Origin: Haplodiscus bocki
Taxonomy: Eukaryota
Assembly: GCA_965655095.1 (NCBI GenBank)
Contig: OZ296649.1
Span: forward strand, 93,000,001 to 93,064,000
Reading direction: 5' to 3'
DNA: 64,000 nt
Shown here: piece after piece, positions 4,908 through 64,000 of the stretch
How positions within the stretch are numbered: the stretch's first letter is position 1
Layout of the letters: each line of letters opens with the position of its first letter
Position numbers and translations under genes: made by a program
The notes under the pieces: generated by a model
The model's database searches: none
Told to the model about the DNA's origin: nothing
The model's input: the letters and a program-made list of their open reading frames with translations, nothing else

Positions 4908-5107
4908 NNNNNNNNNNNNNNNNNNNNNNNNNNNNNNNNNNNNNNNNNNNNNNNNNNNNNNNNNNNNNNNNNNNNNNNNNNNNNNNNNNNNNNNNNNNNN
5001 NNNNNNNNNNNNNNNNNNNNNNNNNNNNNNNNNNNNNNNNNNNNNNNNNNNNNNNNNNNNNNNNNNNNNNNNNNNNNNNNNNNNNNNNNNNNNNNNNNNN
5101 NNNNNNN
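4908..5107. other. Assembly gap (200 N)
   Basis: Run of N, preceded by short AAAATACCCAAG repeats (4825-4900). Confidence 0.99.
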
Positions 5108-6977
5108 GGCAGCAATAGCAGTGATACCACCCATGGCAGCGCAAAAAACTGACGAGGAAAACCCCTAATCGCTGGTACCTTTCGCAACATCATCAATGTC
5201 AATGCCGCCGATGACAATCAGTACTGTCGACATTTGGGCGACATCTTCCGACGTGGGCATTTTCTAATCAGATCAGCCCGATGTAACTCTCTGACATCAA
5301 GCCCCTCAACCCCACCGTTCCCCAGAAAGCAGAAAAGGAATATAAGCCTAGGGTGTCCTTTCTCAAAAGAGGGGGAGTGTCGCAGCATAGCTGTGAAGCC
5401 TGCGGGCAAGTGCTACCAGAAGTAAAGATTATCCCCGGAACGTAAAGGGATTGACTGAAAATGAATGAGCACTGAACTTTATGTGTTATCTTTTAACTAA
5501 GTGTATTTATGTAACTGTTACGTGTTGTATACGTATCACTCCCGTGTACTGATCCAGCTTGAGACGGAACCGTTACGGGACAAACAGATATTCACCTATT
5601 GATAATAGTTCACATTTATCCCAAACAGTGCTATATATGCAAATAATTTATGTAGTTATTAATGTGAATCTACCTTTTCAGGAGCTATGTGCAGTACTTA
5701 AAATGAAACTGAGGCTGTCAGTAATTTTACTCAGTATGCACTTGTAATATATACAAACTGACTTCAAAAGTGAATATTTGCTCCGTCCGTGTTCCGTCAC
5801 TACCAACCTGGTGAGGTCACTCAACAATCCAATCAAATTTGCTCTGCTACTATGCTGTGTTTTAGCTAACTACGGAACAGTTCCGCGTTCAATCATTACC
5901 TTCATTTCAGCAGCACAGCTACAAGCAATGCTAAAACCGAGTACGGAACCAATCTGAAACGCACTGTTCAAGATGAGGAACCAAATAAGAGAAATGAACA
6001 ACGGACAATAAACAAGCCTATTTCAGGTCCAAATATCATCCAAATGAAGCGCAGTAAGATCACATGAACTTCTTGGGCATAACATCATGAACCCTCAAAC
6101 TAAGATTTTATCTGTTCTGATGAATTCAATTACTATTCTCCAATTATGGAAACCCTTAATCTTTTGATTTTTGTTTACATTAATATTTATTTTGCCCGCG
6201 CGGGAATAAGCAGTTTGATGTCCATTTCTGACGGATTAGGCCCGTACGTTTTTTGTCGAAAGATGAAAAGAACCCGGCCTATGAGGGAAGAAGGGGCTGG
6301 AAAAGTGTTTATTTGTCGCCAGGTTCGGCATTTTCTCTGATAGTTAATATCATTGAAATATTTCTCCTTATTTCTACCTCGAACTGGCTTGAAAACAGTT
6401 TTGTTTCCCGCCAAGGAAAAGGTAAAAACAGGGGAAACGAGAATACTTTTATTTGAAATTATTTTCTTAGTTCCGGCTATCAGTTGACGTTACAGGTTGT
6501 GACTAGTTATTTATAAAAAATCACGATTTCCTTTTTTCTTCGGAGTTGATTCAAAAATACAAAAAAATCAGTCTCCACTACTGTTGAACTTTTTTCTATT
6601 CAGAAAAATAGCTACATCGAGAAACAAGGGAAAGTTGGCAGCCGTTTCCAGAGAAACACATGAGGAACACGTCCGTTTCCAGAATCAGCGATAAGTATAT
6701 CACACAAGTTTCTGAAGAAATCGAAGGCAGAGTCACAAAGAAAATGTCCCAGGAATTCAGCAGGACAGAGTCCCGCATTTTGGATGCTCTGTTGAAATTA
6801 GACGATGTTTTCTTGAATCCACAGATACGGACACTCACTGGAACATCCCGGAACAATGAGGTAGACAACCAGTAACAAACTGGGGATCGCTCCCAGAATG
6901 ACCCCCTTCCGAAGTGGAGTTCTCTGCATGTCGGTCCGGCATTTCAATTGAACAAGACCCGGAACAGACTTACCACA
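5108..6977 (+). mobile_element. Decayed 3' end of a related LTR retrotransposon: accessory-ORF remnant, PPT (5365-5377) and LTR (5378-6977); 5' side lost in the assembly gap
   Basis: Colinear homology to 58330-56247 (inverted). Starts TGTCGC after the PPT and ends TACCACA. Contains a Gag-like remnant YITQVSEEIEGRVTKKMSQEFSRTESRILDAL with stops/frameshifts nearby. Confidence 0.85.
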
Positions 6978-7520
6978 AAGTGCGAATGGTAGAAACGTGA
7001 ACGAACTCTGATTCCATTTCTCGAATGAGGATTTTGATTTGAGTTACTTTGTGAAATCTTCACTAACTATCCAAGTGTATGAAACAACTTGAAAAAAAAA
7101 CTTTAGCCAAGTTTTAACTATGCATTTTAGTCAAATACTTCAAAGAATTGGTTCCAAGCAACGCTAATTAGCCCAAGTCTGAACGACGTTAACGCTAAAA
7201 ATAAATTCAAGAAACAGCTTTTGTTTTAAGAGTATTTGAGCTATCCAGAAACTAGTTATTGGCAAAAGAAGGGTAAATTTTGGACAAAATTTTAACTCAC
7301 GGTGCTAAAAGATTCCCATTAGGACAAAGGGTACATCGTGTACTGCATGAGAAACTCCTAGGAATGAAATGTATTGATATCACTTTTTTGGTTACAGCGA
7401 AAAAATTAGTAGAGCTGCTAATTTAGATTAGTTCTGAAATTGATAAATAAAGGACATGCTTGGAACATGTTGCATTGTTCGAACAATAATTTGAAAGAAT
7501 TTCGAAAAATTTTATTTGGC

Positions 7521-8315
7521 TGTACCAGGTCAGCGTGTAAATTCACGGACTGAGGGGCCGTGTTGGTCGAAGTACCCACATCAGAACGGAGATCATTTTG
7601 GGAATGATCTTCATTATACTCCTGGTTTTCCTTCTCATAATTCCCAGAAGTTATCCGTAAGATTCATGATTGCAACCGAACTTGCGAGTTCACAAGAAAC
7701 ACTTTTAGTTCTGACAGTGAGCCTATAATTTGACTCTCAGTTCTGCTAACCCCTGAGACAATTTTCTAGTCATTCTGTTTTCTATTGTTCCCGAAACTTG
7801 TTTAGTGTTGTCCTCAATCACTCTGGGGACAATTGTGCCCATCAAAAGTTTTCCTTAGGTTGCTCCTACTGTCTAACTTTATTGACTGCTACTATTTTCC
7901 TCTTTTTTCTCAACGTTGCCATTTTTGAAGGAAAAAATTGAATAGCTGTCAAAATTGAATTGACGTTTTACTCTAAATTTCAACTTTGGAGTATTAAAGC
8001 ACTCGATAAATATCGTCAATATAAGAAATTTAAGGTAGTCAATAGCATCAGTACACCTATTATTTTCATTTGTTCTTCCATTTCTCCTAATTTTACTTTT
8101 TTGCCGGGAAACATAGTTGTTCACACGCCAAGTTAGCGTACAAATTAGGGAAAAGTACTTTCAATATGCTGTTTTAAAGCAAAAATGGTCATCTCACATT
8201 TTCATCCATTTCTTTCTTCATACACCGTGTTCCTTCCATATTTCGGTAGCAAACGGACAGACCTACTCAGTCGGAAACGGACATCAAAGTGCTTATTCCC
8301 GCGCGTCCTTTGATT
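7521..8315 (-). mobile_element. Third, more decayed LTR fragment of the same family (U5/gag-start portion)
   Basis: 8100-8170 matches 56840-56910 and 8200-8304 matches 56955-57060. Minus-strand ATG at 7922 gives MATLRKKRKIVAVNK.., then frameshifted ..ENRMTRKLSQG..SRTESQIIGSL. Right boundary is uncertain. Confidence 0.75.
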
Positions 8316-11300
8316 AGTCCATTTTGAGTTGTTCAGTTTTGTATGATTTATAGCACGGCAACGTCCCCAATGTTCAATAGTTTTTCCAAGTAATCAAAGT
8401 TCCTTGTTCCGCTGAAACACCAGAGGAATAGGTCCTTCAATATTCGCTGCGCCGCAATTCCAATGCTGCTCCCGACAAAGGTCGAGGTTGGGAGAAGTTG
8501 GTTCAAACCTTGAAGCATTGAGTTTTGCTGGTTGTTGAATCTGCGAAACGCACACTTGCAACAAGTTCATTCAATTATCGTGTACTGTCATTGCATGTTG
8601 AAACACCGATGAAGGATGCATGTGGGCAAGGACATCAAAGATGCCACCCCAGAAATCCCCAATCATTTCGCATTCGGTCATGCAATTTCAAATGTCTCAT
8701 CTGTAGTGTTTGAGGATCATCGCATTCCTAAATGAATAGCTCTTTTTGACCCAACACCTCCAATAATTTTCCTTCAGCTTGAAGTCTGGACGTAATGGGG
8801 GATACGATGACGAACCATTGAAGAATTGACATCCGGTGGACCTAATGGAGAAAAACACAACTGAAAAAGTCTGGCCACATAGAACAATGGAGGCGGCTCC
8901 CATTGCACCTGACGTTATCACTATGTTGTGTGGTATTGAAGAAACGTCGTGCAGTCTAACGACGCCCGTTGACAGATTAGCCTACGTTTCCCGTAAGTCT
9001 AATCTTAACTCCGCGAGGGAGTGTGTTCCTTATCATTGACCCAAACTGTGAAAGATCATACACTTTGACTACTGAGTTCTTCTACCTTCTTAACACTTTG
9101 GTGCCGAAAGGAATTGGAACAATTGGGAAATTAGAGATGGAGGGTAAACATGATCAACAAATGTTTCAAATCGAGGATGCAAAATTATTTTTTTAATGAA
9201 CCCATTGCATATCAATAAATAATTTGATAATCAAAAAATCGGATTTTTCCAGAACTTGAGAACGATTTTTAGTTTTCAATGAGCAAATCATATCTTCACG
9301 CATCAATCAGTCAAAGGTTGTAATTGGAGACTTCCAAAAGCAATTTTGTTCGATAGTTTTGAAAAACCAATTTCTTCTCTGCGTGTAAAAATTGTTAAAA
9401 GACTTTCTACAGGTATCACTATAGTAAAGCAGCTGGCGAGGTTTCTATTTCAAGTTATATAGATTGCAGAATTTTTTCTAGAAAACAAAAGACACAACTA
9501 AAAAAACTGATTGGTAAAAAGAAAGAACTGTGACAATTTTTGGGCTGCAATATTATTTCTGTATTTATTTCCGTTTTTTTTGTTCATTTTCAAAATTTTC
9601 TGAAGTTGCTCAATTTCTGAAGCTACTGGCTTAAATTCATCCAACACGGTCTCAATCGACAATTTTGTATTTTTCAAAATTATGTGAATTTTTCCAATAC
9701 TTCAGAAATCTTTTGTACGTTCGATCAATCAATTTTGTGCCACTTTGGTGAAAAATAATGCTTTGCGACCGCGCCTCTTGTTGATAATCATATTTAGTTG
9801 GAGTACTGCAATGAACCCATTGTCAAAAAAATCCGACCTGTGAAAACGACCGAAGACGACAGTAGGCTGTTTTATTGGAGTGCATCAACTAAGCAATTGC
9901 TTGACATTCATAGTTTTTCGTAAGGGATTGTATCTGGATTTCATACTACTCTTTCAGGAACAAAATCTCTGTCTTTAGAACAGATTGTCAAATTTTATCA
10001 CAAACTTCCGGAAGTGACATGACATTCAATTGATGGATACATATCCTTTATCTGTTTTTGTTTATCGGTTGTTTATTTCGGTTAATTGGACCGAATAAAG
10101 GTCACGATGCAGACAGATCTGGCCAATTTCGTTTGACTCGGTTCATTTTGTTCATGCGTATCTCTATAGATGCAACAACAAACTACAAAGACAATCAAAT
10201 CGTTAAACTGTCGAAATTCATAACCAGAGGCATTAGACGTGAAATGGATGCAATAATTTAGTTGTTTCTCAAATGCAAGCCATGACATGATCTGCTACTG
10301 AAGTGTGCAATGTAAATTTTCTGTCTTCAACAGCCCGTACCATACCAAACCGCATCCTGCTCTTGAATTTTCTAATTTTTCCATAAACAGTCAATGGAGC
10401 ATGGCGACTTTGTCCAATCAGAAATCACCAATTCAAGGCTGGTGGCATTTTTTTTACCTGTATAAGATGCATTTTCAGAGACCAAGCAAGACTCAATACA
10501 AAAAGCAGTAGTGTCTGCTAAAAATCCAGACCAGACAAGCAGAATTCAGCTTACAAGGTTACCAAAGGAAATGAAAGCTGTTCCAGATCCTGACAAATGC
10601 AGTTTGTTAGCTTTTCACTTTTATTAAAAAGGAAAAAACTGCGTTTCTATTTTCGTGCGGATATTAAGGGGTTTTTCTGCCGTCCTCCCTTCATTGCATG
10701 ATAAAATTGTCCAATAATGAATCTTCTCTTCTGAAAAACTTGGACTCTAACAGAGTTTTTTACGTTATTTCGTACCGCAAGCCCCAAAAGGTAAGTGCAG
10801 TTATTTATCAAAACTATTAATTATAATACGTGTCTTTAGAATGCATCAAAATGCCTTTGTCATTATGGCATCAACTTCTAAAGAAAGAAAATTCAGTCTG
10901 CATTGTTATATATATAAAAAAACTTAATTACCAAAAAACAAGTTCAAACGTATGGAAAATCTCTTTTGGCCCTGAAACCCTTGAAGTCTTTTGACCTCGT
11001 TCAAAGAAAATTACAACTCAATCTATGTAGAAATCAGAAGAACAAACAGGAATTGCTGGATGAACAAAAATTCAATGATCGCAACTTTTATGTCAAGAAA
11101 TATTAAAAACAACGCCGTACTACTTTATTAGCCCCACTGGTGTCCATGGAAAGAACTAGGAAGTCAGCAATGGCATAGAATGCTCATTTTTCCACTGTAC
11201 AAGATTATTGAAGCCTGAAAATGAAATTGTTAACGTAGGTATTCTTTTCAAGCGGTGCGTTTGGCATTATTACTTGATGCAAAGCGGTTACAGGCTCATT

Positions 11301-44889: not shown

Positions 44890-47800
44890 ACAAAATCTAC
44901 CCATATTGAATCACTCTCTCTGACACTTTTTTTGGCTCCCTCAAGCATTTTAGTTTTCCTACCTAAAGAACGTTGTAATACAATACAACATGGTCTTGTC
45001 TTTTTGTATTACATTGATGAAATTCCTTCATTTTGTAACCAAAAGCTTCTTGACATACACTACGGGACAAAAAGTTCAGATAGTAATAATTTGATCAAAA
45101 ATTCCAATACTGCACCCTAATACGTTTTTTATCACAACAATTTTCAATTCCTACCTCTAGTATTGGTTGGGTTTTTTTGATTTATTAGCGTATGTTGCGT
45201 TTTGAGTTAATTTCTTTTTCTTGAATTCTTTCAGAAAAAGTTTTATCCTTCCGTCCTCGTTTGTTCTCGGAAAACATCTTGTTTTACAGTATACCTTGGT
45301 AATTTCCTTTAGTTTTGAAGTGATTAAAGTCCCTTAATACCTTCTCTGAGGATACTTTGTAATACAAAAAAATATAGTGAAATGCTTCAAATTTAATTTT
45401 TTCGAAGGCTTTCATTTTTTACCCAGAAACAAATCGCAAGACAAAACTTCAAAATAAACTTTTTCAGTACTGATTCGGTCGAGTACCTTGGTATTGTACC
45501 CAAAAAAAATCATATGACGTTCCCGTGCAGTAATCTCGCTTTGTTTTGTCTTGTTTTGATGCAATACCTATACTTTGTACTCAAAGTCTACTAATCATAC
45601 AATCCCCTATAGATGTTTTAGTGCTGATTTGATCATAACATCTACTGGTGGTCCTTGAGCAACTACGTATCACACTAAACACAATTCATTTTTTTTAATA
45701 AGGCTTGATCAAACTATTTGGTACTGTACCCTAGAAAAAAAGGCAATACAAAAACCTCGTTTTTCTACCTTTTAGTACTGTTTTGATCAAAAACTTTTGT
45801 ACCCTACAAGACCTCGTATTAAATAGCTCTGTTGTACAAGCTTTTAGTGCTGTTTTGACCAAAACCGTGGGTGGTGTACTCTGAGAAAATTGTAGTAAAC
45901 TACACTTTAGTAGTCTCCTTCCTTGTTTCTCTGACCATTTACTTGAAATTTTTATTCTGAAATAAATAGCATTACATTACCCTATTGTGAGAAACTATAT
46001 TGTTCATTTACTCACAGTATCTAATGCCATCCTCCGAAGTACTACGTAGAAAAAAGACTTCAGTGAACTAAAACCCTTTACAAGTGTTCTAATGAAACTT
46101 TTTGCCACCATAACCTGAAACACGTTGGATTACAATACTTTCCAGTAAAATTTTTCAGTTTTGAATTCATCCCATCATTCAGCATTGTACACGAAAACGT
46201 TTGAAACACAAAAGTCTATAAAAAATTTTCTGTAGTTGTTCGGTCAAATACTCAAGTACTGTACCTCTAGAAAATTCATTTCAGATTACCGGTGAAAACT
46301 TTTCCCTATTATACGTCTGGCCCAACCATTTTGTACTGTTCTGCAAAGATTTTCGCGTTGCATAACCCTTTCTGAATTCTCTCTTTTGTTCTTTTTAAAT
46401 CTTTTTGTATTAAAATCCAAGAAACTCTATTGTCTCATACAAAAGGGTGAAGACCTTTAGTTCTAATTCGATCAAATTCTTTTGTTTTGTAAACTAAATC
46501 ATTCGGTAATATACTAGAATAAAGTAAACTCCCTTACAGGTTTGATAAAGTCAGGTTCCATCAAATACTAATGTTTTGTACCCCTAAAAAGTAATATAAA
46601 TTGTCGATTGGATAGAGTACCTAGTGTTGATTTGATAAATTGTTTCTTATTGTGAGCTGTAACATTTTATCTTGTATCACTCCTTCTTAAACACTTTTTC
46701 TCTTCCTCCGATAACTTTAGTATTGCAACCTAGAAAATGTTGTAACACCATACAACATGGAAATTCCTCTTTTTAGTACTGATTTTATCAAATTATTTTG
46801 TTTTGTAACATAAATTTTCTGAAATACACTAAAAGGCAAACAATTCAGCTAGTACCAATTTGATCATAATCTAACAAACTGTACCCTAAAAAACATTGTA
46901 TTAAAACATCCAAAAAAGTTTTCCTTTAGTTTTCATTGATCAATTTAATTAGGTTTTTACCAAGAACTGCAATTTAATTCATTGCTTTGTTTCGAAATTT
47001 TTTTTTAAAAACGATAAGATCAACCCGGTGTGCATTGTACCCTAGAACATCTTGTTTTACAATAAACTATGTTCAAGTCCTTTTTTTGATTTGATCAAAT
47101 CCTTTGTTACTTTGAATATGCACATTTTTAAAACAAGACAAAATTATGGAGCACTATCTGGCCCTCTCTACCGTTCCTTACTCAATGCAAAAAATTGTGT
47201 GAATGAGTTGTTTGATGAGGTGAATGACGCTCAGTTGAAGTGTCAGGTTGTGTAATGTTTCTGCAGAAGTTTCAAGTTGTGCAACGGATTTTGATCGAAT
47301 ACCTGAATTCTGTACTCTAAAATTTTTATCAGACAATACCTTAAGATAGCATGTTTTAGTGTCGGTTTGATCATAACGCCTATTGTTGTATCTTGAAAAT
47401 CTACGTCTCACAGTAACCTTACCTAAGTTTTTTTAAAAATGGCTTGATTAAAATAATAAGTATTGTAACTTAGAATAAAATGCGTTACAATGTCTCATTT
47501 TGATATCCTTTACTACTGGTTTGATGAAATTGTTTTGTACCCTAAAAGGTTTTGTATTACTTTGCCCTGCTGTAATTTTTTTATACTGTTTCAACCAGAG
47601 CCCTGGCTGTTGTACACTGGAAAACTTATAGTACACTAGACTATTGTAAACTCTTTTCTTGTTGCTTTGCTCATATACTTAAAGCTTTTACTCTAAAATA
47701 TAAAGCATTACATTTCCGTATTGTGAGATACTATAGTGTGGACTTGCTCATAGTATCTAAAGTTATCCCCTAAAATATTACATAACGCAATTGACTTTAG

Positions 47801-50800
47801 TGAAAAAAAAACATTTAAAATTGATGCGATGAAACCTTCTGCCATCGTACCTTGAATACTTTGAATTACAATATTTTCTACTAAAGTCTTTCAGTATTGA
47901 TTTAATCCAATCCTCCAGCTTTGTGCCCAAAATTGTTTAATATCCAGAAAATTGTACTTTTTGTTTTGTTTCGATCGAACACACAAGTATTGTACCTTTA
48001 GAAACTTCATTTCGGATTACCGAATAAAAACTTTCTCCAGTATTGATTTGGCAAAGCCGTCTTGTATTGTTATGTAAAATATTTCGTGTTGTTTAACCCT
48101 TTCTGAATTCTCTCTTTTGTCAACTTTTTTTCTATTGAAAGCCAGGAAACTCTGTTGTCCCATACAAAGAGGTGCAAACATCTAGTTCTAATTTGATCGA
48201 AATTTTTTGTTTTGGAACATAAATCCTTTTGTAGTACACTACAATATAGCAAATTCCTTCAGTACAGGTTTGATAAAATAATCATGTACTTTAACCCTAA
48301 AATTTATTTTACATTTTTGATTGGATAGATTACTTGGTTTTGATTTGATCAAACCATTTGATTTTGGGCGCTGCAACAATCTGTCTTGTAGCACTCGTTT
48401 TTATACACTTTTTATGTTTCCTTCAAATACCTCACTATTGCAACCTTGAGAAAGTCGTACTAACATACAACATGGTAAGGTCTTTTTTTATCGATTTCAT
48501 CAAATTCTTTTGTTCTATAACCCACACTTTCTGAAATACAAGACAAATAAATCATCTAGTACTATATTTATCATGACCTCTAAAGTCGACCATTAAAGTA
48601 CATTGCTTCACAATTCCCATAGTATTTTTCCGTTAGTTTTGACTTCGTCAATTTCTTTAGATTTTTCATAAACTGCACATTTTTCCATTACCCTTTTTCG
48701 AAACCGTCTGAAAGCGATTTGATCAACCCATTTCGTTATCTGCCCTGGAACCTCTTGTTTCACATTACACCATAAATTTTTCCTTTAGTTTTGCTTTGAT
48801 CAAATCTTTTATTAATTTATTTTGGTACTTTTTCTAAAACAAGACAAAAAAGTGGATTACTCCAACCTCGGCTTCATCGAAGTTTTTAGCTCTGTGCTCT
48901 CATTAAAACTGAAAAAAAACCTCATAATTTTACAATTACGCTCAGTATTGATTTGATCAAGTCCTTTGGTATTGTACCCCGATATACTTTTCATTGCCTT
49001 ACGCTCAAGTGAATCTGTTTCTTTCTGATCGAAAACCTAAAGTTTGTACAATAAGTTAGTTGATGTTAAAAGACCCTATAGTAAAACCCTTAGGTTATGG
49101 TTTGATCTACTGATTCACTAAAGTACCTTTATAAAGTACGTATCGCAAAACAGCTTAATAAAACAGTTTTGCGTTTGGTTTTTTATCAACATTTACTTTC
49201 GTACCTTGAAAACCGTACTGTTTTGATGAAATCCTCGTATTTTGTTCGTTACAAGACCTTGTATTGCACTCCCTATAGTAAGTTTTTTAGTGCTGATTCG
49301 AACGAAGCCGTGGCTTTTGTACAAATAAAGGTTTACAAAACACTACCTTATAGTATAGTTCATATTTATTGCTCCCGTCTATTAAACAACATTTTACTAT
49401 AGTAATTTTTGCATTGCATCACCCTATACTGAGAAAAGTTCGTGTTGATTTGCTCGGAGCATCCAATGTTATAACCTAAAATACTACGCAGCACAATACA
49501 ATTCAGTGAAACCAGACCTTTTAGAAGTGATCCGATGAATTTTTCTGCCACCGTACCCTGAAACACTTTGAATTACAATACTTTCTATTGAAGAACTCAA
49601 GAATTGGTTTAATCCAATTCTCTAGCATTGCAGCCGAAAACGTTTAGCGTACAAGAGTTTATCGAAAATCTTTCTGCACTGACTTTGTCAAATACTCAGG
49701 TATTGTACCTTTGGCAATTTCAATACATATTACCGTTTAAAGACTTTCCCTAGTATTGATTTGGCCAAATCATTTCGCATTGTGTTCTGCACTTCTTTAT
49801 GTTGTATCACCCTCTTGGAATACTCTCTGTTGTTCCTTTCAAATACTTTGATATTTGAACCTGCAAAATCTCGTATTACCACACAATAAAGAGAAGACGT
49901 TTAGTCCTGATTTGATCTTTTTTTTGCAACCTAAAACATTGTGTACTACACTTTTAATTTGTAAGTGCCTCAGTACTGACTTGGCCAATTCCATTACTAT
50001 TAATCTCTTGCTTCCTGAAATAAAATTTTTAACAATAACCTTGGAAAAATGCCTTTAGTATTCAATTGATCAAAACGAGTATCGTACCCTTAAAAAACTG
50101 TTTTACATTATCGTTCGAAACAGTTGCCTATTATTGATTTGTGCAAACTTTCTGGTGTTTTGCTCTTAAGCACTTTGTATTGTAGCACTCTGTTTTATCT
50201 TCGTTTTTGTTTTTTCAACTCGTTTGTTATTGCAACATAGGAAGATTTTAATAGCACAGCACATGAGAATGTTCCTTAGAGATGATTTGATTAAACTCTT
50301 TTGTTGTAAACCCCGGAGCATTTCCAAGTACACAAAAAATATTTCTAATTGAGAAATTGCAGTTCTAATTGCACTAAAGTGATCATGACCTCTCTTAGTG
50401 TAACTTAAAATACATTTTGTCACGATACTCTTTATTTTGTTCGTTTATTATTGACTTGATCATTTTCTTCGGTTTTTTTACCTTAAATTGCGTTTTAATT
50501 CACTGCCCTAATTCGATTCTTTCAAAAAAGATTTGAATATTTCGTTTTGTTAAGTACCCTCAGAACCCTTTTTTAATTTACTACATGGTCAATTGCTTTG
50601 GTTCTGATTTGGTCACATCCTGAAAAACTGCAAGCCAGATTTTTTTAGGCATTTTCACAAGAACATGCAAGCAAAATCCCCCTATCAACTAGGTTCTTTT
50701 TACCCAATGTTTGGAATTGAGCTCGCGTAACGAGGCAACATCGGCGAAAAATTATTTTATCAATTTGTAGCAGTTTTGCCGCAGAATACGACTGAAATAG

Positions 50801-56220: not shown

Positions 56221-56646
56221 TCAACATCTGCAGATACCTTCACTGATGTCGCGATCTTCTTCTGGGCCAGCGTTTCGAGTTGATTGGCCGTGGAAGAGAC
56301 CCGCTTCAGGATGAGGATCATTCTGGGAGTCGTCCTCATTCGTTCCCTGGTTATTTCTTAAAGCGCTCCGGGCGGGCTCTGGAGTGGCTCCGGAGTACCC
56401 CGGTAGCAATGGGTTCATCAGAAAGTCATCAAGTCGCGCCAGCGCGCCTAGAATGCGATTTTCCGTTCTACTAAACTCTTTTGACAGTCTTTTTGTAACC
56501 CTTCCCTCAATTTCCTCAGAAACTTGAGTTATGTAATCTTCTTGCGATCTAGGAGCGCTTAAGTTTTGTGCCAAGTTGCTCCTAGGGTGTTCTTCACAAT
56601 TTTCTTTGTTCAACGCTGCTAACTTCCTCTTATTCCGAGTTGTCAT
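56221..56646 (-). CDS. Probable Gag N-terminus encoded inside the LTR, truncated at the LTR end (last ~8 codons are flanking DNA)
   Basis: ORF MTTRNKRKLAA...YITQVSEEIEGRVTKRLSKEFSRTENRILGAL is open for 400 nt up to the LTR end at 56247. Homologous peptides at 6660-6875 (+) and ~7680-7922 (-). Gag identity is inferred from position. Confidence 0.65.
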   Translation of the reverse strand: MTTRNKRKLAALNKENCEEHPRSNLAQNLSAPRSQEDYITQVSEEIEGRVTKRLSKEFSRTENRILGALARLDDFLMNPLLPGYSGATPEPARSALRNNQGTNEDDSQNDPHPEAGLFHGQSTRNAGPEEDRDISEGICRC

Positions 56647-58110
56647 TTTTGAGGGGAAAAGTATTTATCAGTCAGTAATACTTTATTATTTGAGTCAAAG
56701 AGAATGAGAAATCAACTTGCTTCTAGCAGTAACAGAGAATGTTCAGAAAGAAATTTTAAGAGTACTGGGTTAATATCATCAGTAGCATACAAATATCAAT
56801 TGTGTCTTGTATTTTCATTTCTCCTATTTATACTTTTTCCTGGCGGGAAACATAATTGTTTACCCGCCAAGTCAAAGTACAAATAGGGAAAAATACTTCT
56901 GACTACAGCACATCAAAGTTAAAAAATGCCGACTCAGGCGGGAAATAAACAACTTTTCCATCCATCTCTTTCATCATAGGACGCGCCTTTCCCGTCTTCC
57001 GACAGAAAATTGACGGTCCTAATCCGTCGGAGATGGACATCAAAGTGTTTATTCCCGCGCCGACAAGTTGTTTGTTGTATACTCCATAGATGGAAAGTTC
57101 AGAGAATTTCCTTGTTTAGGAGAGTAAAAAATAAAATTACGAAAATGAAGAAAGTAAATTAAAATACAAAATGCATGACTTCATCACATTTAATCATCAC
57201 CTTCATGTTCATATCACCATCATCTAATTAAGCTTTCAGTATTTTGGAAATGAGGAGAAACTAGTATAATTACCAATTCACTCCTCGTTCCGCCTAGTAG
57301 CTACTAGTGGTCTCCGGAGCAGCTCCGTAGCCACTAGTAGTGCAAGTTAATATTTCAGTCTGCTACTAGTGGCCTCCGGAGGCGCTCCGTAGCCACTAGT
57401 AGTACGAGTTAATATTTCAGTCTGCTACTAGTGGCCTCCGGAGGCGCTCCGTAGCCACTAGTAGTACGAGTTAATATTTCAGTCTGCTACTAGTGGCCTC
57501 CGGAGGCGCTCCGTAGCCACTAGTAGTACGACTCAATTTAGTCGGCCGTGAACGAATTAGGAGTGAATACGGAGTCACTCCGTAATCACCATAGCACTGT
57601 AGCACGGCATAGTTAAAATAATATTAATGACGTCACCAAACTAGTGACGACGGAACACGTACGGAACAAATATTCACTCCGAGAGTCAATTTGTTACGAG
57701 TAAGCCGCTTTGATACGAGCACTTCTAAAAGTCAATCACTGCATTTATTACTACTAATTACTGCAATTGTACCGAAAAGGTGGATCTATATTTTATCTAA
57801 ATAAATAGATAATTAAGTAAATTAATATAAAAATAGCACCTTTAAGGAAACAATTGCTCTGTGAATACTTATATTGCTCCGTAACGGTTCCGTCCTAGTT
57901 TGGATCAGTTGATATTTTCTGTGCATTTGTTATGGATACGTACTTCATACGTATCCGTATATATGCACATTGATTAAGGAATGGTCTAAAAATGAATAAT
58001 TATGAGTCTGATTAATATTAGAGTTTCGGGTTTTAAGTTTCTGGTTGATTGTTGGGATGTCTTTATCTATGGAAGAGGTTGTCCGCATGCCTCGCAGGTG
58101 TGCTGCGACA
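56247..58110 (-). repeat. 3' LTR, 1864 bp
   Basis: Termini TGTCGC/GCGACA. Homology to 5378-6977 starts and stops at the same boundaries; shared blocks include 57865-57907 vs 5548-5595, 57630-57690 vs 5757-5820 and 56925-57060 vs 6198-6335. Confidence 0.88.
57300..57531. repeat. 62-bp tandem hairpin array inside the LTR (~3.7 copies)
   Basis: Unit GCTACTAGTGGCCTCCGGAGGCGCTCCGTAGCCACTAGTAGTACGAGTTAATATTTCAGTCT starts at 57300 (variant), 57362, 57424 and 57486; each unit has an 11-bp stem CTACTAGTGGC/GCCACTAGTAG. Confidence 0.95.
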
Positions 58111-58744
58111 CTCCCCCCTTTTTGGGAAAAGACATTCCCATACTCAGCCTTCTCTTTCTTCGTGGAGGAGGCGGCGGTGTGGATGGAGGGCTTGGACTGG
58201 GATATACTCTTCGGGGTTCACCTGACTCAAAAGTCTCGTTAAGGGAAGCATCCCAGTATACCCGTCTTGGATCGTTATCAGACGAATGAAAGGTATTGTC
58301 ATCCGTTGTAGTGTGCGGCGTCTCCAATCCACTTTTTGTACTAATGTTCATCGGCGGAGTTGAAATTGGTGACGGATCAGACGGCTCGGGTGATTGGGGG
58401 CTGTCTTCCTGATCATGCTGTACAACGGCCATAGATGCTAGTATGTTAAAGGGATTGGCCGGCAAATTAAGATCATTTAAACTTGGCGGCACTATCGGGT
58501 ATTGGGCTCCGAAGGCATATGGGAGAGTCGGCTCATTAGAGTCAGAGTCAATGGTGACTATTTGTGGCTCCGGAGAGGCGACGGAGGAAATCGTGATCGT
58601 CTCCGGGTCTATAGCTCCCGATAGCTGCGTCGAGTTCAAGATAACCGGAGTATTGTGTCTGATGGGGCTCCTTTCTGGCGAAGATTGCTCCACATAGAAA
58701 ACATCAGAGTCTGTTGACGAATTAAGTGGAATATTCCGATACAT
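58067..58744 (-). CDS. Sense-strand Ser/Pro-rich accessory ORF (225 aa) overlapping the PPT and the first 44 bp of the 3' LTR; C-terminal basic patch and HxCxxC
   Basis: Intact ATG-to-stop ORF. A homologous decayed frame at 5109-5435 (AAIAVI..DEENP*S..SMPPMTIST..SPSTPPFPRKQKR..RGGVSQHSCEACGQVLP) shows amino-acid-level conservation. Confidence 0.7.
   Translation of the reverse strand: MYRNIPLNSSTDSDVFYVEQSSPERSPIRHNTPVILNSTQLSGAIDPETITISSVASPEPQIVTIDSDSNEPTLPYAFGAQYPIVPPSLNDLNLPANPFNILASMAVVQHDQEDSPQSPEPSDPSPISTPPMNISTKSGLETPHTTTDDNTFHSSDNDPRRVYWDASLNETFESGEPRRVYPSPSPPSTPPPPPRRKRRLSMGMSFPKKGGVSQHTCEACGQPLP
58111..58123 (-). promoter_or_regulatory. Polypurine tract (plus-strand primer)
   Basis: AAAAAGGGGGGAG abuts the LTR TG. 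The homologous AAAAGAGGGGGAG lies at 5365-5377 (+). Confidence 0.85.
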
Positions 58745-59113
58745 CGTAATAAAGTTTGAATTATTTTAGGGCTGCTGCTTATTGACAAAGTGACTTGAAA
58801 AGTGATGATATTACTGAAACGTAAGTCGGCACATGCCGTTAGGCGGGAGACGCTTTGAAGTTCCCGCGGTTTCAGTAAAAGTATTAGAGTCGCTGAATTG
58901 GCGGTGTAACTGAAGTTGATGATTGGTAAACAAAATGAAGATGAGATTTTAGGAATGAGGAAATTTTGAGTTCCACTCCTCAATGTATCCTTGAAATAAT
59001 TGCTGACGTCATTGCTGGCAGACAAATCGGTCAAATTAAATAATCATGATAATTAATGAATAAAATTATAAATCCACCGTGTAATAGTTGAAAAGTAAGC
59101 CACGCCGTTCATC
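58745..59113. promoter_or_regulatory. Candidate internal (possibly bidirectional) promoter between divergent accessory genes
   Basis: 369-bp AT-rich gap between head-to-head ATGs (58744 - and 59114 +). CRE-type palindrome TGACGTCA at 59004-59011 and TATAAAT at 59067-59073. Confidence 0.45.
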
Positions 59114-62100
59114 ATGTCTGATGAGAGACAGCAAAAGAAGAAGAAGAGTCGAGTGGTCGTGAGAGACGAAAGTTGTTGTCAGTTGGAGAGTTCCGGAGCA
59201 GCTCCGGATGTCATTGTGTCCCCTTTTGGTCAGTTCCCCCCTGATCTCCCCATTGTGCATGAGGCTGTTGTGAGTGAAGAGGCGAGGAGAAGAGTGGATG
59301 ACGAGGGCACGGAGGCTGATGATGAGTCAGAAATCATCTCTGTGGGTGGACCTCTGTCAATTGTCTGCGAGTCTGAGGGAGTCACGTTCGAGGAGGCAGT
59401 CGGGAGGGCTGGCCTCATTTCAGGAACGGACAATGCTGTTGATACTGCTGGGCTACCGATTTGTTAGTTTTCAAGCTTCTCGGAAAATCCATTAACTTTT
59501 TTTGGGATGTCACACTGGCCAGTTGTTCGATCCGTTAAGTTAGTTGTCATGCGCGCATAATCAGGAGAAGTTGACTTTACCAACGGGTTGTATTTTAGTG
59601 TATGATTCTGCTGGTGAGCCTGCCAAGCATTCCGTTCGTGGCAGTGGAGAGTGTTCTGCTTCAGGCAGCGAATTTGGAGTTGGAGGAGCAACTTCAGGAG
59701 AAGACTTTCCCCGGAGAGCTTCCCGGAGAGCTCCGTTGGCAGCTGTTGCTGAGAGTTGGTATTGCTCTCGCATAATTATCATGGTAGTGTTTCCAGGGTA
59801 TTTTCATGATTGCATTCTGTATTTCAGGCACTGAAGAAGCGATAGGTGGAGATGGAGCCGAAGAGGTGTCCACTGGCTTGGAGAGCGAGGGTGTGGTGCG
59901 CAGGAGACGGGCAGTTGTTACTAGGCAGCTAGTACCGCTCGCTGGGGGGCCCCAGCATTGTCTTCCTGTGGCCAACTCAAGCCAAGATCGGAGTCGTCAA
60001 CTGCTGGAGAAGGCGTTTGATGAGGGTATACCTTTGTTTTAAATGAGTAGCCTTCTAGTATGACTCCTCGTTGGCTCCATGTTTGTGATCCACATTTGTC
60101 TGTTTTAGATCAGTACTCTGGAGATCCTTCATCATCTGTGATTCGAGCGACAGGGCATCAGTTGGTGTCTCTCTGCCGTTCAGTAGTTGAGGAGGAGAAG
60201 AATCAGCTCCTGGGTCCATTGATGACCAGTTAGTCCTCCGGAACTGTTCCGTATGACTCCGTAATTCTGTGGTTTCATGATTTGTTTTTCGTTTGCAGAG
60301 CTTGATGAGGTGTTGGGCAAACTCGGTCAGGGGCCGTCCATACCACAGCAGCAGCAACATCGTGTGAGTGACACGACAGATACCAGTGGGGAGGACACTG
60401 ATGTGGAACAACCTCGTCGGCGGGTGCGCTCCAGACGCACCTTCAAAATGAAGAAGGGTTACGCTGTTGGGGAATTGGCTCAGTTTTTCGTCACCGGGCC
60501 CACTGATGCTGCAAATAAACTGAGCGAGTTTTACTGCAGAGTATGCAGGAAGGACGTGTCGGTTCGTACACACGGGGAGTACGAGATCATCCGGCACTTC
60601 CAAGGACACCGCCATTTTTCTCGCGATCAGCGACTTCGGCTCGAGACACCTGGTTGGCGGGTGTTGGACTTTGACGGCAACCCACTCCCTGAAGACGAGC
60701 TTGAGAGACAGCGGGAGAGAATTATGCTTGCTCCATTAGTCGTTCGGGACCGAGAATATCCTTTTCGGGAGGATTTGATTCCGGATGCCTCCGGAAGTGT
60801 GGACGCTCAGCTTCCGTTGTTGGCCAAAGTCTCTTGCCTGATTGATAATCTGCAGTTGGGTGGGAGCTACGAGCTGGTGGAAAAGCTGTGGGAGCGCTTT
60901 GTGTTGACGGCCAGTCAAATCAATGTGACCGTTGCTTGGTCCCGCGATGAGGTTTTGGTTAGTTCCGTAGTACCTCCGGATCCATATGGACTAATTGGTT
61001 TCAATTCGAGTAACATTTTTGTTTCTGTTTTAGTCCATTTTGCTGAACGGAATGCTGCCGAGGATCTTGACACGTGTTGTTGAGTGGGTGAGGGCACATC
61101 GGCAGTTCGGTGTGGAGTTTGTAACTCACGGCTCTGCAACTTGGGTGTTCGTGAGGACGTGGAAGGCTGGGGAGTTTGTTCGGGTAGCGGTAGCCATCAT
61201 TGACCGCTATTATGGCGATGCAAGCAGTGAGCTGGCGATTCTGGGAAAGATCCTGAGCGCGGTGGGCAGCGGGGCATCACTGGTTTCTCTCTCTGGCGGC
61301 TCCCACACATTAGTAGAGTGCTACAAGGAGTACCTCGGCAGTGGGTACACGAAGACCTTTGTAGATTACCCGGTTTTCGATGCAAGGTTGCTGAAGCGAT
61401 GCCTGCAAAAGACTGCATCACTTGTGTTCGGGACATTGGACCCCTTTTCAATGACAGAGTTAATTGTGGTGAGGCTGAAGGGGGCGGAGCATCGAGACTG
61501 GATGCAGTCAAGGCAGTCTCTTCGTCGGGCCATTGAGACGGGCGATCTTTCTCTTCCCGGTCTTCTTGATGTTGTGAGCAACATCATTGGTGTGTGGCCG
61601 CTGATCGTCTCGTATCTCAAAGAGACTGGAAAGAAAGACAGCGGAGATAGCCTTGTGGTATGGTTCTTCCTTTTGCGCTTCTTTGCCATCTAGCGCCCAT
61701 AGTCATCTCTGTTTTCTTGTTTAGAAAAAAGGGGTAGATGGATACTTTTATGTCGACCAACTGGGCAGAATGAGGTTCCGTCTGTTCCATCTTATCCTCG
61801 AAATGTGTTAGTATTTCCACCAACATGTCACCATGGTGTAGTAGCTGCCATTCTCTTGCGATTTTGGGCTATGGGAATTCTAGGAGTCAACTTGGAGTGC
61901 TCCTAGTGGCCTCCTCATTTTCACATTTTCGGGATTTCTAGGAGTCAACTTGGAGTGCTCCTAGTGGCCTCCTCATTTCAGGCTGGTGAGAGAATTCTAG
62001 GAGCCAACTTGGAGTGCTCCTAGTGGCCTCCTCATTTCAGGCTGGTACTCAGTGGCATTCTTCTGTTTCAGACAACAACAACTTCAGCGCAGAACAGACT

Positions 62101-63489
62101 CCTGGCAGTGGGTACGGGTATCGGGCGTATGGCGAGCTGTCCCACTTTGTGTATTGCATCCTGCAAAAGATCAAGAAGAGTGAGTCGCTTCCCTTGGTGG
62201 AGAAATGGGAAGATTACATGCTGCCGAACCACTCTTCATTCGCTGCCATTGCTGATGAGCATTTTCTCGTGGGGACCCGCATCCATGCAGCTTTAGAGAA
62301 GATGTCGAGCCCGTACTTGCGGAAAGAGTTCCGGACTGGTGCCCGTCATTTCCTTGACGAATTTTGCAGCACCATTTTGTCAACCGTGGCTGCCAGATCA
62401 AAACTGGGACAGGGAGTCAGCTGTTTCTGCCCTGAAATCATTCTCGGAGGCGATGACTATTCCGCCTTTTTCTTGTTTGGACAGCTTCTGGATGGACTTG
62501 TGGAGTGTGGTTGGGAGAAGGGATCCCACATTGAGGCTTGCAAAGCCGAATTTCAATCGTTTGTCCGGGAGCAGCGCCAGTTGGAACGTCATTCCACGAG
62601 GAAGCGTCCTGATGTAGGGAACATCCTGGCCTACTTCGCTCATCAATCCGGATTTCAGAGTCGCAAGCACCTGTTCCGCGTAAGTAGTCGCACCAGTTCC
62701 ACGGTAGCCTTCATTGTAAGCACTAATTGTAAGTCTTTGTTGCAGGTGTACCAATTGACGACCTTGTTTCTTCGGGAATCTGTTGAGGACTTGCCCGCAT
62801 TCACTGTCAAGTTGACTGGAATTGCTTTGAGTCGCCGGCTTGTGGAGAAGTCAATTGCGTGCATTCAGGATTTTGTGCGGTCGCCTCGGTTTACCCAGCG
62901 CGATTTCTTTAGCGACAATGGGGTGAACTTGCTCGTTTCTGCCGTGAATGCTGCTGGTTCGATGCGCGACCAATCCACTTGCGAGCCTTGGGCGAATGTT
63001 CTTCCTGATGGTTATGAGGCTACTTTTGCTGATCTCAGGAAGGCGTATGATGTTGTGGTGGTTAGGCGGAAGGAGGCACGCGATACATCAGAGAGATGGT
63101 TCGGGGTGCGCAGTGTCGAGTCCTCTGAAGTTGGGGAGTCATCTGGTCGGGCTGGAGTGAGAATCTCCAATGTTGTTGAAGTTGGACAGGTCGAATACTT
63201 GTCTGGGTCGGTACCTGCTCGGGATCAGCCTTGCAGCAGCACTACAGTGTCTCCTCGAAGCCCTGGGAAAGGAAAGCGAAAGAGAAGCGTGACACCTACT
63301 CCTGCTGTTGGACCCAAACGACTGTTTGAGTTTAATGACGAGTCGATTGTTCTGCCACAGGGGAGGGGGGTATATTTCGAAGATCCAAATTTTGAATGCG
63401 CGTTGAGGAGTCAAGAAAAAACTGCTGCATCTCGCCGGAGTGGTCGCAGTCGCCGTGCTGCACCAGTCTTCCAGTCTAGTCCCCGATAA
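59114..63489 (+). CDS. Antisense 9-exon accessory gene inside the retrotransposon; 1179-aa protein with BED-like C2H2 zinc finger and hAT-transposase-like body
   Basis: Exons: 59114-59462, 59599-59754, 59828-60025, 60109-60228, 60299-60957, 61034-61657, 61725-61806, 62072-62679, 62746-63489. Total 3540 nt = 1180 codons with no internal stop. All 8 introns are GT-AG with pyrimidine-rich acceptors (66-265 bp) and matching phases (1,1,1,1,0,0,1,0). The model joins the listed ORFs at 59114, 59544, 59806, 60277, 61040 and 62014. Zinc-finger motif FYCRVCRKDVSVRTHGEYEIIRHFQGHRH; basic NLS-like patches KKKKSR and KGKRKR. Confidence 0.85.
61875..62046. repeat. ~58-59-bp tandem repeat (3 copies) in intron 7 of the antisense gene
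   Basis: TTCTAGGAG(T/C)CAACTTGGAGTGCTCCTAGTGGCCTCCTCATTT occurs in units starting at ~61875, ~61933 and ~61992. Confidence 0.93.
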
Positions 63490-63840
63490 CTTAACATATC
63501 ATTTGCATTTTAAATTATATTTAGTATTTAGAGTATGTAGTTAACTGTCTATAGCCCGCTGTCACTTTACAGAGTTGAGTAGTAGTTGAGTATGTCGCCA
63601 GGGTGTATCCTCAAAATGTTAGGAGTAGCTTGTATGTACTCCGTATTGTGTCCGTCGCCATTATTTTTGGGAAATTTCAGGAGATTTGCGGGATGTCTCC
63701 GGAGGCACTCCGGAGACATACTGATTCTGAGTTCTGTCGGGGAACGTGTATGGGCTCCGGATGCGCTCCGTATCACATTCCCAAAATCCACATTTGGTAT
63801 CCGTAGTTGTTCCGGATACATGCCAAGGCAGACTAACGAT

Positions 63841-63999
63841 TTAATATCTGTAATCGTCATTGCAATTTGGCCTTGGATTGTGGCGTAGGTTATATTTTGA
63901 GCTGCGGGGGTTGGTGGGCGTAGGGTCAATTCGCTCTACGCTGTTGTCCGCATCAAGCTGCATGTAGTGATCCGTATCGGCTCCGTCGTCTATTTCATC
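63841..63999 (-). CDS. Probable C-terminal tail of Pol/integrase (partial, open at window edge)
   Basis: Frame DEIDDGADTDHYMQLDADNSVERIDPTPTNPRSSKYNLRHNPRPNCNDDYRY* is open from the edge, on the same strand as the LTR/PPT. The basic 'YNLR' tail resembles gypsy-type integrase C-termini. Only 52 aa are visible. Confidence 0.55.
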   Translation of the reverse strand, partial: DEIDDGADTDHYMQLDADNSVERIDPTPTNPRSSKYNLRHNPRPNCNDDYRY

Positions 64000-64000
64000 T

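Follow-up and report, generated by a model that had tools for sequence, protein, structure and literature searches.

A gene of probable hAT transposase ancestry carried in antisense by a Ty3/gypsy-type retrotransposon of Haplodiscus bocki

Additional open reading frames (ORFs) oriented antisense and lying between pol and the 3' long terminal repeat (LTR) are known from Ty3/gypsy elements of plants and fungi. These are Grande gene23, RIRE2, Retand (TRP28/PF04195), and Boty (PMC7264820, PMC11963269; here and below, statements on published systems refer to the accessible parts of the cited texts). The origin and the role of these ORFs are called unknown in both papers; the insertion of a transposable element (TE) is listed as one possible route, for which the lack of similarity gave no support (PMC7264820). 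Here we describe a stretch of 64,000 nucleotides from Haplodiscus bocki (assembly GCA_965655095.1, contig OZ296649.1, positions 93,000,001 to 93,064,000, forward strand; "the window"), which contains a Ty3/gypsy-type retrotransposon with a large antisense gene, named the cargo gene in the following. An earlier note, made without database searches, had proposed that this gene encodes a catalytically dead hAT transposase recruited by a class I element. In its position and its conservation, the cargo gene is a member of the gypsy antisense extra ORFs. It resembles those of plants and fungi with respect to position, antisense orientation, family-wide presence, conservation, presumed nuclear role, and nearby tandem repeats; an upstream promoter of its own has been shown for Grande and is inferred for the cargo gene. 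In contrast to the known cases, it resides in an animal-type genome, encodes 1179 amino acids, has eight predicted introns, does not match TRP28, and has a traceable likely source.

Related principles have been reported for other mobile elements. The targets of VANC proteins are short motifs that occur densely in non-coding regions of the element encoding them (PMC5735166), and transposases can activate cognate copies and turn into regulators on losing catalysis (bioRxiv 10.64898/2026.08.24.746577; in the accessible main text of this preprint, the word "retrotransposon" is absent). The ORF3 genes captured by LTR elements of bdelloids (PMC5408684) are similar to our case in that modular, exchangeable extra genes are carried by LTR elements of invertebrates; however, these genes are env, GDSL esterase or DEDDy exonuclease, and the abstract names no transposase-derived cargo. 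A literature search without subscription journals and Repbase listed no case of an LTR element with an accessory gene derived from hAT, and the accessible text of PMC6431247 and PMC13317346 does not mention such a case.

The cargo gene (59114-63489, plus strand) lies between pol and the 3' LTR, antisense to gag-pol, and is predicted to comprise nine exons, which after removal of eight GT-AG introns form a single stop-free frame of 1179 residues. The extent originally proposed (60299..62900) includes only exons 5-8 and the beginning of exon 9; the predicted gene is larger. Among further copies carrying the same type of cargo (type A), all eight splice pairs are intact in five of five and the frame is open in three of five. 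GT..AG was found at 66 of 72 junctions of introns 5-8 in 18 elements representing seven cargo types, where four acceptor positions were permitted for intron 7; if intron 8 is read through, it appears as a non-conserved gap flanked by conserved blocks. For exons 5-6, the ratio of nonsynonymous to synonymous substitution rates (dN/dS) was 0.107-0.202 in seven within-type pairs. The other frames, tested for six of these seven pairs, gave values of 0.19-8.6, the lowest of which belongs to the antisense frame with shared third positions. The frame is no product of chance: Eight GT-AG introns lead to one frame of 1179 residues, the splice pairs are kept in 5/5 copies, and dN/dS is as low as 0.11-0.20. 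By these comparisons, the cargo gene is real and under purifying selection; its splicing is predicted. Among 15 listed of 195 contigs, none had a joint at a predicted intron, which counts neither for nor against splicing. Position and orientation of the cargo gene are the same in 15 of 15 sister regions (with paired LTRs in 14 and adjoining pol in 13), which were located via the cargo, such that elements without it would escape. The seven cargo types of the genome have a common layout and common intron positions. The Ser/Glu/Arg-rich tails with patches resembling nuclear localization signals, which had been noticed before, were found as low-complexity tails with basic patches at residues 8, 193, and 1109. 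Intron 7 contains a 58-59-bp tandem repeat with extra AG/GT signals (61875-62046), whose copy number varies among the type-A copies; its length ranges from 265 to 388 nt among them.

The surrounding element is a young Ty3/gypsy-type retrotransposon. A self-comparison including the adjoining stretch identified two LTR copies of 1.86 kb (56247-58110 and window-equivalent positions 69953-71816), which are 99.46% identical, have TG..CA termini, and are flanked by the same five bases at both outer edges; pol, gag, and the 5' LTR lie beyond the right end of the window. On the minus strand between the LTRs, gag is followed by pol in the Pfam order protease, reverse transcriptase (RT), RNase H, and integrase. 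RVT_1, RT_RNaseH, RT_RNaseH_2, Integrase_H2C2, and rve scored above the cut-off in pol, the protease scored slightly below it, and gag matched DUF1759. The paired LTRs, the target-site duplication (TSD), and the Ty3/gypsy-type pol bear out the proposal that the gene resides in a class I element. RT of the window copy has one in-frame stop, at a site that is open in 5/5 other copies, and clear 5-bp duplications were seen in six of ten sister regions examined for them. Comparing a 661-bp piece of the cargo with the 1.5-Gb genome gave 1481 first-look candidates, 40 of which were scored and showed 93-100% identity; protein queries gave 5,100-8,700 candidates. These totals do not equal copy numbers. 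The lineage is very abundant in this genome. In all types examined, the start of gag (about 120-160 codons) lies within the LTR (56247-56650 in the window) and is hence doubled. A 7.2-kb derivative (C9, 16.29 Mb) with LTRs of 99.5% identity has a partial cargo gene and no pol, and the element G_C2 has lost most of gag, while its LTRs are still 99.7% identical; both look like recently mobilised non-autonomous forms.

The similarity to hAT transposases begins with the zinc finger in exon 5. The C-x2-C-x16-H-x5-H pattern described in the earlier note is well conserved: In the alignment of homologous rows, which include redundant and decayed copies, the four ligands are present in 159/168, 160/170, 164/176, and 165/176 (93-95%). 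The published BED signature is CX2CXnHX3-5H (PMC7471704). The beta-rich stretch, which had also been pointed out, is located in exon 6 and predicted as three consecutive strands. The model of exon 6 consists of helix, three strands, helix, strand, and helix, with a mean predicted local distance difference test score (pLDDT) of 57.9 and block values of 65-89 over residues 1-90. It corresponds to the N-terminal half of an RNase H-like fold, the closing helix being outside the model. When the model was compared with 350,542 chains by means of Foldseek, Hermes transposase occupied ranks 1-4 (E 0.0045-0.016), and further Hermes chains ranks 7, 9, and 10. VIA-align superposed model residues 8-98 onto Hermes residues 159-261 (Z 4.8, root mean square deviation (RMSD) 3.9, 88 residues), a segment including the catalytic residues D180 and D248 (PMC6027215). 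The top matches in these structure comparisons have RNase H-like folds. In BFVD, a viral hAT-domain protein ranked fifth (E 0.028). For an exon 5-6 homologue, the language-model features of Atlas retrieved four named rows, which belong to zf-C2H2_12, FAM200-ZBED5 or zf-BED clusters (0.83-0.85, where scores below 0.9 are leads only). These clusters are hAT-derived families. The parts of the protein (finger, core of three strands, second strand, long helical region) are arranged as in hAT proteins. Like Hermes and other hAT enzymes (PDB codes 4D1Q, 2BW3, 8SJD; PMC6027215), the cargo protein combines an N-terminal C2H2 finger that fits the BED signature, a predicted RNase H-like core, and, after this core, a long stretch predicted as helical.

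Several results weigh against this ancestry. The best Foldseek match (E 0.0045) has an RMSD of 13 and a TM score of 0.30, and none reaches E 0.001. In VIA-align, hexokinase/actin-type and ribosomal folds outscore Hermes (Z up to 6.6 versus 4.8) and P-element transposase equals it; in a wide structure search, Hermes was outside the top 50. Pfam gave no hAT, BED or TRP28 match on exons and alignments, so that the zf-BED and Dimer_Tnp_hAT domains suggested before were not recovered; its strongest match, at E 0.009 and in 9 of 20 rows, was to a C2H2 finger of DHX34 type. Nothing under E 0.08 resulted from a PDB sequence search with three profiles, phmmer found no match to the hAT frames of 40 host loci, and hhalign values for four shallow host hAT alignments (E 0.02-0.9) were comparable to reversed controls. 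With a hidden Markov model built from 13 host hAT frames, the core reached 4.6 bits, as did 2 of 300 block-shuffles, and the score came entirely from the finger. Atlas gave no usable match with exon 6 alone. The helical segments that had been compared with the hAT C-terminal region do exist in the sequence, in exons 8-9; the model of these exons is all-helical, but has a pLDDT of 41.5 and no fold or Pfam match (PF05699 region), and the resemblance is unconfirmed.

These findings have to be considered in view of another origin, which we regard as unlikely, namely that the gene descends from a different insertion-domain DDE transposase (P element, Mutator or similar) or from an unrelated host protein with RNase H-like fold. 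P-element transposase is level with Hermes in VIA-align (Z 4.8, 89 aligned residues) and appears at ranks 18-19 in Foldseek, actin/hexokinase folds score higher than Hermes, and the hAT sequence match was never significant. On the other hand, the Foldseek E-value of Hermes is more than tenfold better than that of the P element, the pattern of the C2H2 finger agrees with the BED signature (PMC7471704), Atlas gave leads to clusters of BED/ZBED type, and the order of the parts is that of hAT proteins. In searches for homologues, 150 listed of 674 matches in genome representatives look like copies or decayed relics of the lineage, among the matches listed from assemblies there were only close relatives, and metagenomes contributed 10 cargo-like loci at 56-94% identity, none more distant; in viral contigs, no cargo-like locus was found. 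The host genome contains a young, intact-looking hAT family (a frame of 624 amino acids at about 20 near-identical places) and several other hAT frames, none of which is detectably close to the cargo. Taken together, sequence and predicted structure make a hAT origin of the cargo gene probable.

Hermes uses D180, D248, R318, W319, and E572 for catalysis (PMC6027215). The corresponding register in the cargo protein was inferred from VIA-align and from a comparison by eye with host hAT motifs. At site 524, which should correspond to the first Asp, 227 rows contain Glu (112), Ser (43), Ala (30), or Val (15), and Asp is outside the six commonest residues; the statement that this Asp is not evident was right in this register. 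The second site (582) is Gly in 247 of 264 rows and Asp in two, the CxxH site (606-609) reads Tyr-x2-Phe (Tyr606 in 239/263, Phe609 in 238/262), and the Arg-Trp pair is absent at 663-671. For site 966, where the catalytic Glu would be expected, the counts in 81 rows are 23 Glu, 23 Arg, 19 Gln, and 10 Asp; all these rows include redundant and decayed copies. The statement that the S-x-x-ER-x-FS motif is not evident can be refined: The window copy has a degenerate Ser-x4-Glu-Lys-Ser at residues 961-968 (Glu at 62845), and this Glu is the one present in 23/81 rows. A further point against a complete loss is E522, which is conserved (206/228) two residues ahead of the first site and is thus possibly a remnant acidic residue; nonetheless, an inspection of the inferred sites revealed no DDE triad. 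If the cargo protein is derived from hAT, these substitutions make it almost certainly catalytically dead. The longest inverted match in the cargo flanks is 9 bp, there are no terminal inverted repeats (TIRs), and the best 8-bp duplication has 5/8 matches among the ten longest of 17 inverted-match candidates. Unlike Hermes and related enzymes, the cargo lacks the D, D, CxxH, RW, and E sites of the inferred register, TIRs, the 8-bp duplication, and a Pfam hAT match, has long tails, and moves as cargo of a retrotransposon. Consequently, the proposal of a catalytically dead hAT transposase is supported in part: It stands with respect to the RNase H-like core, the leading Foldseek rank of Hermes, and the lacking catalytic set, whereas no hAT test was significant. 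The structural comparison that had been suggested placed the exon-6 model next to Hermes (ranks 1-4), at E 0.0045 at best and with an unusable C-terminal model. Neither of the results named in the earlier note as contradicting its proposal, i.e. no likeness to an RNase H fold, or an intact DDE triad with TIRs and an 8-bp TSD, was obtained.

Nested insertions are common, and the antisense orientation and the introns imply an insertion at the DNA level; hence, the gene might be a nested or hitchhiking hAT element without benefit for its carrier, or a still-active transposase. This explanation is largely refuted and highly improbable: dN/dS is 0.11-0.20, the gene occupies one position in seven types with saturated silent sites, the flanks offer at most the inverted match and the partial duplication given above, and the catalytic residues are missing at the inferred sites. 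We therefore rejected an active or nested hAT element on the grounds of selection, fixed position, absent ends, and missing catalytic residues.

Introns, reverse orientation, and an upstream spacer of its own fit an insertion of the gene as DNA instead of a copied mRNA; a retrocopied mRNA was discarded as source because of the introns and the antisense orientation. Most likely, a hAT element or a previously domesticated hAT gene would have been inserted in reverse between pol and the 3' LTR, and would subsequently have shed its ends and catalytic residues. Antisense introns stay unspliced in genomic RNA. The cargo introns would outlast reverse transcription in this way, being in the wrong orientation there. 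The host hAT frames fetched are mostly long single frames; the eight introns may therefore stem from a domesticated donor gene or from later gain. No cargo copy was seen outside LTR elements in searches that were saturated by element copies.

The non-coding parts of the element provide candidate binding sites. The window has 34 matches to CTCCG[GT]A, compared to 4.8 expected (0 of 100 shuffles had as many), and 32 of the 34 are within the element; its density is 9-13 per kb in LTR and spacer and below 0.1 per kb in the left flank. On the same repeat scaffold (57300-57580 and 63630-63780 in the window, and sister equivalents), TCCG[GT]A is present in types A, G, and F and in element E_C4, and [CT]ACGT[AG] in types B, C, and D and in element E_C1, with motif pairs 10-11 bp apart. 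The spacer 58745-59113 may be the promoter of the cargo gene, as we infer from its sequence; it contains TGACGTCA in 16 of 18 elements. The CpG observed/expected ratio is 0.80 in the flank and 0.86 in the element; as CpG is little depleted, silencing based on methylation is hypothetical. The cargo gene would be transcribed from the adjacent conserved spacer, the protein would enter the nucleus, and its finger would bind the clustered CpG-centred motifs of LTR and spacer, keeping the copies transcribed. Given the VANC-like motif clusters and the precedent of transposases acting as regulators, self-activation or anti-silencing is the most likely role, to which we assign about an even chance. With VANC and the TnpA/AtMu1 transposase, the element shares an encoded protein together with dense, family-specific non-coding motifs, partly in tandem repeats. 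However, those proteins act within plant DNA transposons, whereas in our case the motif does not change together with the protein, and binding is a candidate function. Like DREF/ZBED1 and the FAM200/ZBED5/GTF2IRD2 clusters, the cargo has retained a finger of putative hAT type, and the target of DREF is a CG-centred palindrome as the element motifs are CG-centred (PMC7471704); in contrast to those host genes, the cargo is present in mobile copies numbering hundreds to thousands, and its beneficiary, if any, would be the retrotransposon.

The location of the motifs also bears on a function in integration. The cargo protein could be a cofactor that binds LTR ends or target DNA, and that tethers, imports or protects the pre-integration complex. 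Finger and basic patches are retained, and a role in nuclear import or retrotransposition was proposed for plant antisense ORFs (PMC7264820). However, the motifs cluster mid-LTR and in the internal spacer, away from the LTR tips, and we deem this function quite unlikely.

The proposed self-activation is challenged by the distribution of the motifs among the elements. CTCCG[GT]A was chosen after the repeats had been seen. The CpG-centred motifs may be sites of host factors; in particular, the CACGTG class could presumably be a host E-box. Motif type follows LTR, gag, pol, and small ORF, not cargo: The cargos of E_C1 and E_C4 are 72-82% identical and their motifs differ, types B, C, and D have one common motif class, and finger residues do not clearly covary with the motif, a comparison based on few independent events. 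A strict lock-and-key relation of cargo and motif was accordingly dismissed. Finally, expression and splicing of the cargo rest on prediction from sequence. The small ORF of 225 residues next to the promoter candidate is 47-93% identical across 12 elements, ends in a basic patch and C-x2-C, and has no Pfam match; its tree separates the two motif groups (support 0.999). It is another candidate motif partner, though it just co-travels with the LTR.

The history of the cargo types differs from that of their carriers. In types B, C, and D and in E_C1, silent sites of the cargo are saturated (proportion of silent differences pS 0.74-0.80, of amino acid-changing differences pN 0.20-0.28), whereas the backbone of the same elements is unsaturated (RT 0.18-0.27, integrase 0.16-0.34), and the cargo tree disagrees with the trees of gag, RT, and integrase. 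E_C1 combines an E-type cargo with LTR, gag, and pol of B/C/D type. Between cargo types, identity is 60-82% in the finger and 31-60% in exon 9. Saturation of the cargo on a younger backbone and the conflicting trees indicate that old cargo types are kept on a younger common backbone. Most simply, cargo types were swapped between backbones, i.e. cassettes were exchanged by recombination. By its sequence pattern, the cargo is a maintained, exchangeable module. This is compatible as well with a protein of the same origin that would not read the element's motifs, but counter a silencing factor of the host as decoy or inhibitor, with arms-race turnover and exchange of cassettes. The saturated silent sites, the deviating cargo tree, and the independence of motif type and cargo type are in favor of such a decoy; moreover, domesticated ZBED1/DREF is reported to SUMOylate Mi2-alpha, which frees genes from Mi2-alpha (PMC7471704). 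Two observations disagree with it, as the finger ranks with the most strongly conserved regions, which suggests binding of nucleic acids, and dN/dS shows no excess of amino acid changes; we rate it as rather improbable.

The best explanation of the data is a retrotransposon-borne antisense gene, likely derived from hAT and likely deprived of catalysis, whose product would bind DNA in the nucleus and activate its own element or protect it from silencing; to this reading as a whole we give somewhat less than an even chance. The wider scenario, in which a retrotransposon lineage domesticated the enzyme of a DNA transposon, kept it in ancient, swappable types, and thus possesses an animal counterpart of the VANC/TnpA anti-silencing factors, is put forward tentatively and is more doubtful. 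Table 1 lists the features of the locus. Apart from the element, the window contains an unrelated, degenerate tandem duplication of about 1.7 kb (45554-49952, 67-71% identity).

Table 1. Position of the retrotransposon, the cargo gene, and candidate control regions in the window
Feature	Position	Strand	Remarks
Ty3/gypsy-type LTR retrotransposon	56247..64000, on to window-equivalent 71816	-	15.57 kb; LTR pair, TSD, Pfam pol order
5-bp target-site duplication	56242..56246		same bases directly beyond the other LTR
3' LTR, 1864 bp	56247..58110	-	first ~400 bp also code for start of gag
62-bp tandem repeat in LTR	57300..57537		CTCCG[GT]A in pairs at 11-bp distance
Pro/Ser-rich small ORF, 225 residues	58067..58744	-	head-to-head with cargo, reaches into 3' LTR; conserved, 12/12 elements
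Polypurine tract	58111..58123	-	adjoins 3' LTR; read from sequence
Conserved spacer, candidate internal (possibly two-way) promoter	58745..59113		TGACGTCA at 59004, TATA-like word at 59067
Cargo exon 1	59114..59462	+	start codon; acidic/Ser-rich tail with basic patch
Cargo exon 2	59599..59754	+	gene model
Cargo exon 3	59828..60025	+	gene model
Cargo exon 4	60109..60228	+	gene model
Cargo exon 5	60299..60957	+	residues 275-494; zinc finger and segment after finger
C-x2-C-x16-H-x5-H zinc finger	60535..60615	+	C354, C357, H374, H380; fits published BED signature
Cargo exon 6	61034..61657	+	residues 495-702
Predicted RNase H-like core	61055..61327	+	residues 502-592; V524 (61121) and G582 (61295) at inferred Asp sites
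Cargo exon 7	61725..61806	+	82 nt; frame preserved only with exon 7
Cargo exon 8	62072..62679	+	residues 730-932; all-helical prediction
Cargo exon 9	62746..63489	+	residues 933-1179; basic low-complexity tail; inferred third-carboxylate site E966 at 62845
Non-coding spacer, cargo end to pol end	63490..64000		the CpG-centred motif again in a dense cluster

We regard the gene, the selection acting on it, and the absence of a catalytic set from the inferred sites as solid; the hAT ancestry is likely, and the function is a hypothesis which faces one notable contrary result. Transposases are known to be domesticated by hosts, or by DNA transposons that turn to the enzyme they encode; in our case, a class I element seems to have domesticated a class II enzyme. 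This would be the first traceable origin of a gypsy antisense extra ORF and, if our reading is true, the route via TE insertion, listed without support in the accessible text of PMC7264820, gains a case. That the cargo types are old and their backbone is young suggests selection for diversity of the cargo. With its candidate binding sites identified, the cargo protein is a candidate, open to test, for an activator or anti-silencing factor that is encoded by a transposon of an animal-type genome.

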